A DNA stretch of 64,000 bases, taken from contig CAVYXA010000001.1 of NCBI GenBank assembly GCA_963772365.1, positions 1,216,001-1,280,000 of the forward strand. Reading direction: 5' to 3'. The notes below the pieces were generated by a model. The model was given only the letters and a program-made list of their open reading frames with translations, ran no database searches and was not told where the DNA came from. Numbering within the stretch: the stretch's first letter is position 1; each line of letters opens with the position of its first letter. Both the position numbers and the translations under genes were made by a program. Below, piece by piece: positions 21,070 through 34,463 of this stretch. Origin of the DNA: an uncultured Verrucomicrobiae bacterium (GTDB taxonomy: Bacteria; Verrucomicrobiota; Verrucomicrobiia; Chthoniobacterales; UBA10450).

Positions 21070-21597
21070 TCAGAAATCGTCCGGCACATTGACCTTGTCG
21101 ATCTTAAAATTCTTCACCGTGTTCCCGAAGGCTGGCGAAGTATTGTGCAGGAACCAGGCGGCCGAACACCATTTGTAATTCTCGGCGATGGCAGTCACGC
21201 CATGATGGACTGGGTTATGATGAACGTAATTCAGTCGGGCCAAATAGGAGCGTTCAAAGGTGATATGGCTATCCCAAAATTGGTACCAAACTCTTCGACC
21301 AGGGGCATTGTCCCAATGATTCAATTTTTTGGACGTCTGCATGTGCAGCTTTCCCAAAAATTTCCGGAGTGTCCCGGGCTCCTGCGGCGAAGCCGCGATA
21401 AAATGATAATGATTCGCTAGAACTGCCCAAGCACGGAGGTCCCAGCAAAATGCCGCAGCCGAGGCAAACAAAGACTCGACGAAAAAATTAAGACGCATCG
21501 GTGAGTTCAAATGCGGAAGCTTTTTGTAAGTCCCGGCCGTAACCATATAAAGCCCAGGCTCGAAAAGCCAATGCACCGGGGCATGCGGCCACTTCAT
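21070..21597 (-). CDS. REP-associated tyrosine (Y1 HUH) transposase RAYT1
   Basis: YMVTAGT, WAVLANHYH (HUH), WYQFWD, NYVHHNPV..G, YKWCS; REP doublets on both sides. Confidence 0.88.
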   Translation of the reverse strand: MKWPHAPVHWLFEPGLYMVTAGTYKKLPHLNSPMRLNFFVESLFASAAAFCWDLRAWAVLANHYHFIAASPQEPGTLRKFLGKLHMQTSKKLNHWDNAPGRRVWYQFWDSHITFERSYLARLNYVHHNPVHHGVTAIAENYKWCSAAWFLHNTSPAFGNTVKNFKIDKVNVPDDF

Positions 21598-21639
21598 GCC
21601 GTAGTGAATGTCGAAAATTTGATCAACTGGCAACGTCTT

Positions 21640-21699
21640 TTTGGAGTGCGCGGACATGTCCGCGCTTTCAAAGCGGCGACATGTCGCCGCACTCCAAAA
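21640..21699. repeat. GGAG-type REP doublet upstream of RAYT1
   Basis: TTTGGAGTGCGCGGACATGTCCGCGCTTTCAAAGCGGCGACATGTCGCCGCACTCCAAA. Confidence 0.9.
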
Positions 21700-25655: not shown

Positions 25656-25715
25656 TGTAGGGCAACCGCTCCGGTTGCCGCCGCTTGGTCTGGCAAGCGA
25701 AGCGCTTGCCCTACA
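25656..25715. repeat. GTAG-type REP doublet downstream of RAYT2
   Basis: TGTAGGGCAACCGCTCCGGTTGCC ... GGCAAGCGAAGCGCTTGCCCTACA. Confidence 0.88.
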
Positions 25716-26202
25716 ATTTCAAATCTGGTAATTCGTAGCGATACGGCCAATCTTCTGGTCGTTTTATCAAGCTGGCTCGTACCGGGTTTTCTTCAATGTA
25801 TAGCCATTTTTCATACACCGATTCCTAGGCCCGTAGGAGGCGGTCAAAACAACCTGGTTGCCATTTCCAGGAAGCATGTAGTTCCTGTCGCATCCAGCGT
25901 TTTAATGCCGCCGCAAGATTTCCGACCCTGGCCTCGCGATCTTTTGTTGGCGCGGCCAGAATATGAAGATGATCAGGCATGACTACGGCGGCGAGCATAT
26001 TCCAGTCGCTCAGCTTCGCCGCAGCATTTTTGAATGCAATGAAAGCGCGGTCATTTCCCAGGACAGGTTTTCGATTCGCCACACAAATCGTGACGAAATA
26101 AGTCACGGATTGGTCCCAGCGTAACCAAACAGGAATCCTCGGTGGATGACCTATTGTCCTAATATTGCCAGGCGATGCGCCCGCCCTACAACACGAAACC
26201 AT
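25711..26202 (-). pseudogene. second RAYT/Y1 transposase with an internal in-frame TAG at 25825-25827 (start uncertain)
   Basis: TYFVTIC, VVMPDHLH, WQPGCFDRLLRA*, then in-frame ESVYEKWLYIEENPVRASLIKRPEDWPY, which carries the catalytic-Tyr motif. Confidence 0.8.
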
Positions 26203-26248
26203 GAATGCCGGTGCTCTTACAAATTGTAGGGCAACCGCTCCGGTTGCC
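26168..26248. repeat. GTAG-type REPs at the 5' end of RAYT2
   Basis: GGCGATGCGCCCGCCCTACA (to 26190) and TGTAGGGCAACCGCTCCGGTTGCC (26225-26248). Confidence 0.8.
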
Positions 26249-26333
26249 ATGTCTTCATCATTATTTTGGCTTCGGGTTTGGTCATTCTCCTGGGCGGTTT
26301 GCGTTTCAATTCTAAATCGCGGAAGATTTCCTG

Positions 26334-27755: not shown

Positions 27756-27779
27756 TGTAGGGCAAGCGCTGCGCTTGCC
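27756..27779 (+). repeat. single GTAG-type REP
   Basis: TGTAGGGCAAGCGCTGCGCTTGCC. Confidence 0.75.
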
Positions 27780-28057
27780 GTGCATACCTCGGGCTGCAGC
27801 GAGTCTAGTTCACGGTGCGTTTTTCGATTGGTTTGAATAGTCGAGTTCAGTCGCGCTTCTAACTTCCCTTTTGCAGTCCCGGAAAACGCGGGACGATGTT
27901 TACGCAGGAGTCATCACGCGATGTGGGTGGCTCTAGCCTTGAAGCGTTCGGATGGTAAGCGAAGCAGCGCGATCGGCTAGTCTGCTTCGTGAGAAGCTGG
28001 AGTTTCGGTAATTTTTAGAAATTAGCGCAGGCTTGCGCTTGGTTGTCGCGCCTACGC

Positions 28058-28200
28058 ATCTAACCAGACCAAGATGAGCGACCAGTGCAAAGTAAAGCGC
28101 GCGGCACGGCGCGGACGAGAATACCGAGCGGTGGGAAGGCTCGGGATAGACGGCCAAGCCGCGCAGGTAGCCGCCGTTCGCTCCCATCTCACGGTTATGC
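28058..28200 (-). other. attC5 (degenerate)
   Basis: GCATAAC...GCTCATCTTGGTCTGGTTAGAT on the minus strand; shares AAGATGAGCGAC and CCGCCGTTCGCTC with attC1/2. Confidence 0.7.
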
Positions 28201-29264: not shown

Positions 29265-29570
29265 AATTTTCTTTCTAGTTGAAAAGGTGCTTCCCGGCGG
29301 GAACCGCGGCATTTCATCTAACGAGAATAAGAAGAGCGACGGCGATCTTTGCAAAACAATACGGCGGGAGTGCGTGAGCGTGAAGACCTGAATCGCACTA
29401 GGGGAGCCGGGACCTTGGATGAAGTCCAAGCGAGCGCGCGCGTCGTGCCCGGTAGAAGTGTGGAAGTCATCAAGTCATCTCAAAAGTGGAAGCGTACAGC
29501 GGTCCGCCGTTCGCTCCATCGCCTAGATGGCATGTAAGGGTGCGGGCGAGTGGTTAAGCTCACCCGCACT

Positions 29571-30674
29571 ATGCAAAATACAATCGTTCATAACGAAGGG
29601 GCGACCTCACCCGAGGGCGCCGTTGGTAAAGTAAAGCTCCCGTGCTCGGTGATCAAGCTTGGACTGGACATGCACGCCCGGGTCTATGTGGTAGTGGCCC
29701 AATACGATCAGCTCTTGCCCAAGGCGCCTCGACGCTTTGCCCCTCCCGAGTTTGTTCCCTGGGTGGAAGCAGTGTTGCGAAGGGGTCACACGGTTCATGT
29801 GGTTTATGAGGCGTGCGGGTTTGGCTTCGGACTGTATCGGCAGTTGTGTGCCGCTGGAGCACATTGCTGCGTGATTGCGCCGCGCAAACTCGACGAACAG
29901 GGCACGGGAATAAAAACCGATCCGCGCGATGCTCTGACATTGTGTCAGCGGCTCTCGCGTTATGTGGAAGGCAACACCTGGGAACTGGCCGTGATTCGGG
30001 TGCCGAGCGAAGAAGAAGAACAGGCCCGGCATGTTTCGCGTCAGCGTGGCCAACTGGTGCATCATCGGCAGAAGCTCGAAGCCCAAGGGCGCTCGCTGCT
30101 AATCAATCACGCGCTGGCAGCGCCGGCTCATTGGTGGAAACAACAGACCTGGAGCCGATTGGGCAAACATCTGCCGGTCTGGATCAGGCTACGGCTGGAT
30201 GTGGCACGACCCGCTCTTTTGAGTTTAGAGGAGCAAATTAACGCCCTAACCAGTGAATTGGAAGCGGCGGCGGGGGCTTGCATACCGGCCGGGATCGGCA
30301 AACTCACCAGCGTGGTGCTCACTCGCGAGATCTGTAATTGGCACCGGTTTAACAATCGGCGCGCGATCAGTTCTTACACCGGACTGTGTCCCGGCGAGCG
30401 CAGCAGCGGGAGTAAACGAGTTCCGGGCAGTGTGACCAAACGAGGCAACCCGCGGCTAAGAGCCGCGCTGGTCGAGTGCGCCTGGCGCATGGTGCGTTTC
30501 CAGCCGCAATATCCACCAGTTAAAAAACGGCTCGCTATCCTGGCAAAGGACGCGCCCGCCACCGGCGCACAACGCAAAAAAGCCATCGTCGCTGTGGCCC
30601 GGCATTTGGCCGTCGATCTGTGGCGCGTGCACACCGGACGCTGTAGCGCAGCCCGGCTCGGCCTAATTAATTAA
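29571..30674 (+). CDS. IS110-family recombinase/transposase
   Basis: GLDMH, VYEACG, KTDPRDA (DEDD RuvC-like domain); SYTGLCP..RSSG, KRGNPRLR..LVE.AW, AIVAVARHL. Confidence 0.93.
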   Translation: MQNTIVHNEGATSPEGAVGKVKLPCSVIKLGLDMHARVYVVVAQYDQLLPKAPRRFAPPEFVPWVEAVLRRGHTVHVVYEACGFGFGLYRQLCAAGAHCCVIAPRKLDEQGTGIKTDPRDALTLCQRLSRYVEGNTWELAVIRVPSEEEEQARHVSRQRGQLVHHRQKLEAQGRSLLINHALAAPAHWWKQQTWSRLGKHLPVWIRLRLDVARPALLSLEEQINALTSELEAAAGACIPAGIGKLTSVVLTREICNWHRFNNRRAISSYTGLCPGERSSGSKRVPGSVTKRGNPRLRAALVECAWRMVRFQPQYPPVKKRLAILAKDAPATGAQRKKAIVAVARHLAVDLWRVHTGRCSAARLGLIN

Positions 30675-30960
30675 CTACTCAAGTTCGAGGGGAACAGTTT
30701 TGGAACGTGGCGCGTGTCCGGGATCTAACCTGAACCGTTAAAACGACGAGCTTCGTCGCTTTAGATTGGACCGCGCCAAAGTTCCGCTTCAGTCGAGACG
30801 GAATAAGTCACATTGCGCTGTCAAAATTAACATCGACATGCGCGGATAGGAGTATCAGCCGCTGAACAATCCAAAGCGCGCACCAAAAGCGGAAGCGTTC
30901 CTACCCAAGTTCAACCCCACAACCTGACAAACCAATGTAACCGTCATCCTCAAAACTTAT
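30675..30960 (+). ncRNA. candidate seekRNA/bridge RNA of the IS1111-type element
   Basis: Non-coding; two predicted stem-loop domains (30702-30785 and 30788-30866) at the position where IS1111-group elements encode their guide RNA. Boundaries are inferred. Confidence 0.6.
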
Positions 30961-30996
30961 CTTTGACACCCTTCATAGGGGTTAGATGATTAGCTG

Positions 30997-31320
30997 TCAT
31001 AATCTCACGAGCTTTTCTTCTGCGAGTCTCTGAACGAACGGCAATTCAGACTCGACGATCCAGAACTCATCTGGCGTGTCATGAAATCCGGCGAGTTCGT
31101 CCCGGCCTCGCTTCAATTTGAAATCGCGCGTCGCACGGATGCGGGCGTTCGTGCACCAACTCGCGATGAGCTCGGGAAACTTCGAGCTCGGATAACGCTT
31201 GCGGTCTATGATGGCTGTCGTGCCATCGGAGTATTCCTGGAGCAAACGCCGCAAGACCGCTGAGTAACGTTTCGTACGAATGGCAATCACCTTCGGCGAC
31301 TCGCGACGCGTCCACATCAT
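30997..31320 (-). CDS. cassette 4: hypothetical protein
   Basis: Fills the space between attC3 and attC4; ATG lies within GTTAGATG. Confidence 0.7.
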   Translation of the reverse strand: MMWTRRESPKVIAIRTKRYSAVLRRLLQEYSDGTTAIIDRKRYPSSKFPELIASWCTNARIRATRDFKLKRGRDELAGFHDTPDEFWIVESELPFVQRLAEEKLVRL

Positions 31321-31441
31321 CTAACGAGACACAAGATCAGCTACCGCGCCCGGGAGCGCGCGTGGCCGCAAGTTGAAGGTTCTAGCTACTCTCAGCGGGG
31401 AAGCAGAACGGGGCGCGGTTAGCTGCATCGCCTGGTTAGAC
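31319..31441 (-). other. attC3
   Basis: GTCTAAC caggc GATGCAGC ... GCTGATC ttgtgtctc GTTAGAT on the minus strand, 123 bp, imperfect palindrome. Confidence 0.9.
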
Positions 31442-32259: not shown

Positions 32260-32383
32260 GTCTAACGAGAACAAGATGAGCGACGGCGGACGAGGGCGCG
32301 CGTCGCTCGGAGTGGAAGGGTGGAAGGCATCTCAAAAGTGGCGCGCAGAGCGGTCCGCCGTTCGCTCCATCGCCTGGTTAGAT
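32260..32383 (-). other. attC2
   Basis: ATCTAAC caggc GATGGAGC ... GCTCATC ttgttctc GTTAGAC, 124 bp; L'' carries the extra-helical G. Confidence 0.93.
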
Positions 32384-32417: not shown

Positions 32418-32630
32418 TCATCTTCTGATATTGTGACGCTCCATCAGAGAGCGAATTCCGAAGACGCTCAAGGCGACGGCACCGAGGATCAAAAAAATGA
32501 ACGCGCCGATGCTGGAAGCAGTGTGTGCGGCGGGAAATATTCTGCCGATCGCTATCGCGCAGAGCATGAGCCCGATGCATCCAAAAAGGATGCCGACGAT
32601 TTGGAGGTGCCTGATGCGCGACGAAGTCAT
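32418..32630 (-). CDS. cassette 2: small two-TM membrane protein (70 aa)
   Basis: ATG within GTTAGATG of attC1; two hydrophobic helices; basic tail. Confidence 0.7.
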   Translation of the reverse strand: MTSSRIRHLQIVGILFGCIGLMLCAIAIGRIFPAAHTASSIGAFIFLILGAVALSVFGIRSLMERHNIRR

Positions 32631-32751
32631 CTAACGAGAATAAGATGAGCGACGGCGGACGAGGGCGCGCGTCGCTTGTTTCATAATTCTTAATTCTTCC
32701 TTCAGCCTTGTCATGCGGCGGTCCGCCGTTCGCTCAATCGCATGGTTAGAC
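32629..32751 (-). other. attC1
   Basis: GTCTAAC catgc GATTGAGC ... GCTCATC ttattctc GTTAGAT, 123 bp. Confidence 0.93.
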
Positions 32752-33374: not shown

Positions 33375-33432
33375 GTCTAACGAGAATTCGGCCGAATTAT
33401 TCGGCATTTAAAGGCGGAATTATTCGGTCTAA
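33375..33432 (-). other. attI
   Basis: GTTAGAC core at 33375-33381 with no attC arm, plus two 11-bp direct repeats GAATTATTCGG (33394-33404, 33417-33427), between cassette 1 and intI. Confidence 0.8.
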
Positions 33433-33473: not shown

Positions 33474-34463
33474 ATGGCCACCATTGTGCCGCTGGGACTG
33501 CCGGTGGACAAGCCAAAAAAACTGCTCGATCAGGTGCGCGACGTGATGCGGCTCAAGCATTACAGTCTGCGCACAGAACGCTCCTATTCTGATTGGATTG
33601 GGCGCTTCATCCGCTTCCACCAGATGCGGCACCCGCGGGCGATGAGCGAAGTTGAGGTGAGCGCCTTTCTCACCCACCTGGCGCGGGATAGCCAAGTGGC
33701 AGCTTCCACCCAAAATCAGGCCCTTAGCGCGATCCTCTTCCTCTACCAGCAGGTGCTCAAGCAAGAGATTGGCTGGCTGGGCAATGTCGAGCGGGCCAGC
33801 CGACCGGCGCGACTGCCGGTGGTGCTCAGTCGCGAGGAAGTCGACAAAATCTTTGCGCATCTGCATGGAACGCACCGCCTCATGGCGGGATTGCTCTACG
33901 GGAGCGGGCTCCGATTAATGGAGTGCGTGCGCCTGCGAACCAAAGACATCGAGTTTGCCTATGCAAAAATCATTGTTCGCGACGGCAAAGGTATGAAGGA
34001 TCGGGTAACGATGCTGCCAGTCGCTCTGGCACCACCGCTGCAGCGCCATTTGCAGAAGGTCCAAGCGCAACACGAACAGGACTTGGAAGATGGTTTTGGT
34101 GAAGTTTACTTGCCGCACGCATTGGCGCGGAAATATCCCTATGCAGCGCGGGAATGGGCCTGGCAATTTGTCTTTCCCTCGACCCGTATTTCAAGGGATC
34201 CGCGCTCCAGTGCAAAGCGGCGGCACCATGTCGAGGAAAGTTCCCTCCAACTTGCCATGAAAAAAGCCGTCCGCGCATCGGGGATTAACAAGCCGGCCAG
34301 TTGTCACACTTTGCGGCATTCGTTTGCCACGCATCTATTGGAGAACGGCTACGATATTCGAACCGTGCAGGAGTTGCTCGGCCACAAAGACGTGAGCACG
34401 ACAATGGTTTACACCCACGTGCTCAACAAGCCGGGGTTGGGCGTTCGCAGTCCGCTGGATTGA
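33474..34463 (+). CDS. intI: integron integrase
   Basis: [29 protein letters not shown], IntI-specific insertion [51 protein letters not shown]. Confidence 0.97.

Follow-up and report, generated by a model that had tools for sequence, protein, structure and literature searches.

Insertion sequences of the IS1111 type that target attC sites (ISKpn4, ISPst6, ISPa21 and ISPa25) were reportedly described by Tetu and Holmes in 2008 and by Post and Hall in 2009; the kind of system considered here is known from that time, and its guide RNAs since 2024. The seekRNAs of IS1111 elements, including the IS1111-attC group, have been reported, with the order of the matches reversed (Siddiquee et al. 2024, PMC11187229), and IS1111-attC elements lie antisense to the gene cassettes (PMC3001079). 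In IS621, a left guide is accompanied by a right guide ending in AG and the handshake bases AU (A81/U82), the donor core is CT, and the first cut falls 3' of the core (PMC11208158). Here we analysed a window of 64,000 nt from an uncultured Verrucomicrobiae bacterium of the Chthoniobacterales (C1:1216001-1280000, on contig CAVYXA010000001.1; positions below are in window numbering unless C1 or C2 is given), in which a 1,455-bp insertion sequence of the IS110 family interrupts the site attC4 of an integron. The element is very probably intact, recently mobile and RNA guided, has an IS1111-type layout, and belongs to a Chthoniobacterales lineage that targets attC independently of the ISKpn4/ISPa21/ISPst6 group. 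We read this from the sequence: from the ends, the fixed insertion point, a 3' RNA with structure, and guides whose bases match the target and the donor and covary with both. The element and its ends are as follows.

29525..30979, plus strand: whole IS110-family insertion sequence, 1,455 bp, without target duplication, delimited by the second genomic copy and the end motifs of relatives.
29525..29531, plus strand: left extension AGATGGC, 7 nt, whose first two bases, AG, are the putative donor core (CT on the opposite strand).
29532..29542, plus strand: left subterminal inverted repeat ATGTAAGGGTG, 7 nt inside the end.
30963..30968, plus strand: TTGACA, -35 box of a probable circle-junction promoter, 11 nt from the right end.
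30967..30979, plus strand: right subterminal inverted repeat CACCCTTCAT (30967-30976), 3 nt inside the end, followed by the 3-nt extension AGG.

Excision of 29525-30979 in silico leaves CCATCGCCT/GGTTAGAT (a slash marks a junction throughout), the same as the end of attC2. The rejoined site folds as an attC hairpin with an R''-L'' spacer of 5 nt, and the insertion point lies 1 nt inside attC4, counted from R''. A second full copy, at C1:825124-823670, shows 5 differences over exactly 1,455 bp and has the flanks CCGGCT and GGTTAGAT, and a right-end remnant of 482 bp on C2 terminates CATAGG/GGTTAGGC. Because these two copies, with different flanks, stop at the same bases, the ends of the element are fixed independently. 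All three genomic copies share ends and target, the other two lying in cassette arrays at T/GGTTAG or GGTTAG. The first-pass annotation of this DNA had proposed a precise insertion into the R''-L'' spacer without target duplication, imperfect inverted repeats set 7 nt and 3 nt in from the ends, TTGACA 11 nt from the right end and a transposase antisense to the cassettes. Each of these was recovered: no bases are repeated at the junctions, the repeats and TTGACA stand at the positions given above, and the transposase open reading frame (ORF) is on the plus strand with the cassette genes on the minus strand. Inspection of the other genomic copies, which it had also suggested, placed both in attC contexts with GGTTAG. 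The repeats match at 10 of 11 bases with one indel; by eye, their arms co-vary in relatives such as L015, and they are shorter or looser in many relatives, against the perfect or near-perfect repeats of 11-13 bp that characterise IS1111 elements. Ends with the same motifs were found for 69 left and 60 right ends among 75 relatives. From relatives with AG at both junctions, and from IS621, we infer that the AG of the left extension is the donor core. TTGAC is conserved in the aligned elements, a conservation partly imposed by the end-finding pattern, and an outward promoter formed with the right flank (TTGACA-16-GATGAT) is no commoner than chance (1 found versus 1.1 expected).

The coding part of the element holds two features.

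29540..29569, plus strand: hairpin ending just before the ATG (-25 kcal/mol, z -4.2, equalled by 0 of 200 shuffles).
29571..30674, plus strand: intact recombinase of 367 aa, beginning with ATG, with RuvC-like D33/E80/D117/D120 and Tnp-domain S279 (Pfam PF01548 and PF02371).

The protein scores 184 bits against NF033542 (cut-off 140), and residues D33, E80, D117, D120 and S279 are conserved over 35 rows except for two gaps, one N and four T. Its structure model has a predicted local distance difference test (pLDDT) score of 92, and the best Foldseek matches are IS621 and ISCro4 (E 9e-12, TM 0.58-0.60); a single-sequence search of the PDB with the recombinase gave 0 matches, and a profile search recovered IS621 and ISCro4. 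By sequence and predicted fold, the recombinase has the RuvC-like DEDD domain and the Tnp domain with catalytic serine that define the IS110 family. The hairpin that had been noticed before the ATG folds as listed and hairpin-like sequence is present in 23 aligned leaders, though RNAalifold on the alignment of these leaders gives it little support (just 4 pairs, 1 compensatory). It probably limits translation from read-through transcripts.

The account of the element and its targeting in the first-pass annotation holds in outline, but the guide RNA, which accounts for the targeting, escaped it. The RNA and its guides were placed as follows.

30700..30902, plus strand: putative bridge/seek RNA, predicted from sequence alignment, in which an internal loop would bind the target and a multiloop the donor.
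30723..30731, plus strand: first target guide ATCTAACC(T), which spells attC R'' and is reverse-complementary to the right flank GGTTAGAT.
30759..30766, plus strand: second target guide, NNT + AG + AT, with core and handshake bases as in IS621; TAGAT is invariant.
30807..30813, plus strand: possible left-end donor guide GTCACAT, partial and uncertain; TCA is invariant.
30846..30853, plus strand: right-end donor guide ATAGGAG(T), invariant in 35 elements and with the same sequence as the predicted circle junction ATAGG/AG.

None of 100 shuffles folds as well as the 305-nt 3' non-coding region (NCR) that follows the stop codon. A consensus RNA from 23 elements has 41 pairs, 18 of them with compensatory changes, and 96% of cells paired, a result equalled by 0 of 500 shuffles, although the structure was derived from the same alignment that was used for scoring, which favours it; in slid controls, the paired share drops to 32-49%. 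The guides sit in unpaired loops of this covarying fold. Three of the four guides of this structured non-coding RNA, with its target- and donor-matching loops, are clear, and the left donor guide is partial. Across the family, the first guide has the form RY-CTAACC(T), with CTAAC invariant in 35 aligned elements. Guide and target matched at position +7 in 49 of 59 cases (29.2 expected), at +8 in 38 of 59 (26.7 expected, with a further 15 being G:T wobbles) and at -2 in 35 of 60 (23.6 expected); locus L031, which has an extra G, was excluded from the +7 and +8 counts. With one copy per element type, the match at +7 was 31 of 39 (p at most 0.002).

The relatives used here form a family of 75 loci (52-88% identity), drawn from the best 80 of 138 matches in a genome scan and mostly from Verrucomicrobiae, Chthoniobacterales or Candidatus Udaeobacter; several share a genome, so that loci are not independent. 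A relative was matched in 25 of 151 host-family genomes, a count that also takes in the sister lineage described below. The ends of the relatives were placed by element motifs alone, and enough flank was available at 68 of the 69 left and 57 of the 60 right ends. Left flanks end in T in 67 of 68 cases, and right flanks begin with GGTTAG in 52 of 57. Left flanks were tested for attC at 68 sites (66 relatives and the two own copies); a fixed attC pattern proved too strict and noisy for this (23/66 versus 9 controls), and the sites were scored by pairing instead. Of the 68 rebuilt sites, 40 showed an R' arm upstream in which 6 or more of the 7 L'/L'' pairs form, against 38 of 2,040 shuffles, and in 40 of 40 the insertion was at the R'' side. 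In empty attC-like sites (n = 80), the R''-L'' spacer is 5 nt in 69 and at most 7 nt, and T is already at -1 in 63 of 69. T occurs at +1 in 9 of 69 empty sites versus 0 of 57 filled ones (Fisher p 0.004), an absence that suggests selection at that base.

These counts bear on the alternative boundary of the first-pass annotation, in which the true ends would use a shared TAG core. TAG does stand at both ends, and T precedes nearly every left end, but T is already common in empty sites, the spacer would be 8 nt, a length seen in none of the 80 empty sites, and the resulting circle junction would be without ATAGGAG, which the downstream RNA keeps in 35 of 35 aligned elements. This boundary was rejected, and we give it practically no credence. 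An extra G was seen at the insertion point both in an empty attC near C2:46120 and in the filled site L031, possibly a footprint of imprecise excision or insertion.

More distant relatives have other targets. Five loci with both flanks (L198, L201, L207, L209 and L210; 39-43% identity) share their left end with the family, have the right end CATAGC and carry the donor guide ATAGCAG, which changes with the right end. They lie in non-attC sites, with a matched, duplicated AG core at both junctions, and their target guides spell their own flanks; from their sequences, we regard them as a natural reprogramming of the guides. In a sister lineage (L238-L241 and L248-L252; 36-37% identity), 9 of 9 copies enter the same attCs at a point 13 nt deeper, where L'' has its inner edge (GTT/NG-CTCCA); this lineage has matching guides of its own, and its first core base is degenerate. 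These data suggest that one RNA scaffold in Chthoniobacterales has been aimed at at least two attC positions, 1 and 14 nt after R''; tree support is 57 at the node that bears on a common attC-targeting ancestor of the family and the 14-nt sister lineage. The targets, matched to the core at non-attC sites and mismatched to it at the two attC positions, make up a natural reprogramming series on one scaffold, which renders one-strand versus two-strand integration, and the core requirement, directly testable.

Counts of target sequences in the genome bear on what provides specificity. Perfect matches to the 9-mer TGGTTAGAT number 14, of which only 2 are attC R'' ends, whereas CG-NN-T-GGTTAG-RY occurs 10 times, and 8 of those sites look by eye like attC ends. 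If the invariant CG of the guide does pair across a bulge, the sequence by itself may be specific enough. It is nevertheless conceivable, although unlikely, that the guide gives only part of the specificity and that a folded single-stranded attC hairpin (or single-stranded DNA linked to IntI or replication) is also needed. The three genomic copies are all in arrays despite the many 9-mers elsewhere, the second guide matches just 2-3 bases without the bulge, and related lineages and the ISKpn4 group likewise chose attC. On the other hand, the CG at -5/-4, faced by an invariant CG in the guide, already narrows the genome to those 10 sites; many filled sites are without an intact R' arm, though decay may follow insertion; and the non-attC relatives put the same RNA scaffold on non-attC flanks.

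We compared the element with the ISKpn4-type set, which was built from a motif in the published NCR and one annotated copy in a class 1 integron (L211); the label rests on NCR likeness, the record naming the gene only as an IS110 transposase. The insertion point of this known group was measured from loci: of 80 motif-scan loci, 22 had a usable right end, the remainder being chance matches or incomplete. In 16 of 23 cases the distance between the right end and GTTAG is 6 nt, and in none is it 1 nt. Four ISKpn4-type right ends, those of L116, L122, L144 and L156, were found 4 nt, not 6 nt, from the GTT of R''. Between the transposase of our element and four ISKpn4-type proteins identity is 20.5-23.1%, and their union in one clade was rejected (approximately unbiased test, p 9e-57) in a quick LG+G4 tree of 31 rows that gave long-branch warnings, held only 3 canonical IS1111 references and did not include ISPa25. 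In this tree, the ISKpn4-type proteins cluster with ISEc11, IS4321 and IS1618, and the element's family clusters with relatives from Verrucomicrobia and then, further out, ISSso6. At 367 aa, against 330-350 aa for the IS1111 clade, and with 19.9-21.4% identity to ISEc11, IS4321 and IS1618, the transposase stands on a separate branch.

The first-pass annotation had called this an IS110/IS1111-type, IS1111-attC element and had named a transposase phylogeny as a check. The layout and the attC target stand, and membership of the known group does not. The 7-nt left and 3-nt right extensions, the absence of duplication and the 305-nt NCR 3' of the transposase gene, in which ATCTAACC precedes NNTAG (top-strand match first), are IS1111 traits; with the IS1111-attC group the element further shares a fixed position in the 5' (R'') half of attC and an orientation antisense to the cassettes. 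We consider it very unlikely, however, that it is an ordinary IS1111-attC member (ISKpn4, ISPa21, ISPst6 or ISPa25) that moved into Verrucomicrobia. The shared target, orientation, extensions and NCR would favour such a transfer, as would the finding that the ISPa25 targeting RNA can go with a 46%-identical transposase (PMC11187229). In contrast, the low identity and the rejected clade argue against it, as do the insertion 1 nt after R'', 5 nt from the ISKpn4-type position 6 nt after R'' and inside L'', and guides that differ by eye. The element also differs from the group in its length of 367 rather than 347 aa and its Chthoniobacterales hosts. The nearest flanked relatives outside the family also aim at other sites. 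Judged by sequence, the element has an IS1111-type layout and would work as IS1111-attC elements do, outside that group and the core IS1111 clade. Because relatives hit non-attC sites or a third attC position, attC targeting appears to have evolved more than once.

We propose that the element forms a circle whose junction would join TTGACA to a weak extended -10, allowing the recombinase and the RNA to be expressed. One guide would pair with R'' plus one base (RYCTAACC) and the other with the spacer base or bases on the far side, and the strand corresponding to the cassette top strand would be cut and exchanged, aided by AG-AU core/handshake pairing with the incoming donor. Since the target does not carry the donor core (AG, or CT on the opposite strand), nothing would be duplicated and both junctions would keep the sequence of one strand. 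R' ends are probably spared because C, not G, stands before GTTAG. The junctions nearly always read T/AG at the left and AGG/GG at the right, as the top strand of the cassettes would after a single exchange; by scaffold position, the guides predict NNT-AG-GTTAG, one base longer than the real NNT-G-GTTAG. Single-strand integration has been described for CazIS110-1, which copies out without leaving (bioRxiv 10.1101/2025.10.25.684509). The junction pattern fits such integration, and biased repair after a two-strand exchange would look alike.

Several observations weigh against an RNA-guided, attC-specific element of this kind. The left donor guide matches at only 4-5 of 7 bases and overlaps a predicted stem. 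The conserved target CG at -5/-4 could pair with the guide's invariant CG only through a putative 1-nt bulge (shifted test p 0.049), and covariation was absent where the guide faces -3 and -4 (15/60 and 7/60). The -10 across the circle junction is weak (TGn-CATGTA at 17-nt spacing). In the survey, 28 of 68 sites fell below the attC threshold, most of them decayed, truncated or interrupted attC ends by eye, and L008 at least is coding DNA, not attC. The quality of the quick LG+G4 tree, with its long-branch warnings and 3 canonical references, counts on the same side, and expression of the RNA and every reaction step are taken by analogy from IS621, ISEc11 and CazIS110-1. Finally, when covariation was controlled for the tree it kept its direction and was not significant: at +7, 5.6 of 9 pairs were concordant and 0.5 opposite (median p 0.125), with p 0.06 at +8 and p 0.25 at -2. 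This last result would be expected if the protein read the target and the RNA matches were relics or scars of past insertions. We nevertheless hold that explanation to be highly improbable, as the guides sit in unpaired loops and vary together with the target, over three target classes, and with the two donor ends, and tests on IS1111 and IS110 elements found the NCR to be essential (PMC11187229). An RNA-guided element remains our preferred interpretation.

The host integron, which had been called probable, is real and complete in the window, with IntI, an attI-side core and five cassettes on the minus strand. Its features are listed here.

33474..34463, plus strand: integron integrase IntI, 329 aa, predicted from sequence (TIGR02249, 485 bits, cut-off 265).
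33375..33381, minus strand: attI-side core G/TTAGAC, start of cassette 1, complementary to attC1 R''.
32629..32751, minus strand: attC1, empty.
32260..32383, minus strand: attC2, empty, a perfect target for the first guide of this copy.
31319..31441, minus strand: attC3, an empty near-target that differs at +8.
30997..31320, minus strand: cassette 4 gene, 107 aa, no Pfam or NCBIfam match.
30980..30987, minus strand: attC4 R'' (ATCTAAC) and 1 nt of spacer, cut off by the insertion sequence.
29316..29524, minus strand: remainder of attC4, with R', L', a long terminal loop, L'' (29513-29520) and 4 nt of spacer.

Both attC2 and attC3 had been described as empty identical targets; this is so for attC2, but attC3, which reads GCATCGCCT/GGTTAGAC, differs at +8. 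Rejoined, attC4 is 217 bp long, against about 123 for attC1-3, and a long site resembling it lies at C1:1301707-1301882. Separation of R'' from L'' should stop the use of an attC by IntI. Parted by the 1.45-kb insert, attC4 would be inactive for IntI and cassette 4 tied to its neighbour, probably permanently. The freezing of cassette 4, as first proposed, is a sound inference; the added "until it excises" is unsupported, because ISEc11 forms circles with the re-joined empty target undetected (PMC11187229) and CazIS110-1 copies out without leaving. Rare post-excision junctions or empty sites are on record for IS621 (PMC13626964). By analogy, return of attC4 through excision is doubtful.

Other features of the integron and its surroundings were noted. 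An attC5 at 28058-28200 has a decayed R'' (GGTTATG), and its R' end, TGGTTAGAT on the other strand and without CG at -5/-4, is unoccupied. The L'-R' spacer is 6 nt in classical attCs, and in attC1-4 and the family loci it is longer, at 8 nt (7-9), opposite the 5-nt R''-L'' spacer. On C2, the remnant at C2:46438-46917 retains a complete guide RNA and nearly no transposase, and adjoins a small cassette that resembles a truncated toxin-antitoxin pair by eye; C2 also carries a broken IntI-like gene. In the left flanks of L011, L028 and L030, a shared sequence ending in CACAGCC abuts the last 8 nt of the attC beside the insertion sequence; in L030, this sequence forms a terminus of a short element whose ends are inverted, which suggests a second attC-targeting mobile element. 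In the regions 25657-26250, 27757-27782 and 21070-21657, short palindromic repeats starting with GTAG flank a 141-aa ORF; this ORF and another of 195 aa resemble transposases of the HUH type associated with repetitive extragenic palindromic (REP) sequences. Across the whole window, Rfam at gathering thresholds found two tRNAs only.

What this locus adds is a large Chthoniobacterales lineage that converged on attC and whose target is the motif most conserved among gene cassettes. It may represent an overlooked route by which the cassette arrays of abundant soil bacteria become fixed. We put forward tentatively, at somewhat short of even odds, that attC is a safe harbour repeatedly found by RNA-guided IS110 elements, that the scaffold was reprogrammed to 1 and 14 nt independently of the proteobacterial 6-nt group, and that the offset guides are natural evidence of coreless single-strand transfer. 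If true, this would be family-wide evidence from nature of a bridge recombinase without need for a shared core. We did not find the lineage or its insertion point described in the literature searched, most subscription papers and ISfinder itself lying outside the searches. The ISfinder proteins in the PMC11187229 source data file gave 0 matches to five lineage motifs, and passages of PMC5034289, PMC11322120, PMC7923331, PMC9229058, PMC11089894 and PMC12444791 contain nothing on the lineage.

Among named transposases, the nearest found, at 28-29% identity, belong to the ISSso6 side branch (beside ISCARN28 and ISEc45 in the PMC11187229 source data); ISSso6 falls on the same side of the tree as the element against canonical IS1111 and is still distant. 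The group IIC-attC introns (PMC3001079) likewise use RNA and home to attC antisense to the array, but differ from the element in their retroelement chemistry and unrelated protein. Like the bridge recombinases IS621 and ISCro4 (PMC11208160, PMC11208158), the element has the same predicted fold and, when its RNA is read on the opposite strand, the same guide order as IS621, the CT donor core and the AG-AU core/handshake bases. Its seekRNA-like match order agrees with the reversed order of IS1111. Unlike IS621 and ISCro4, it has its RNA 3' of the gene, with a donor multiloop, possesses subterminal repeats, and enters a target without the CT core.

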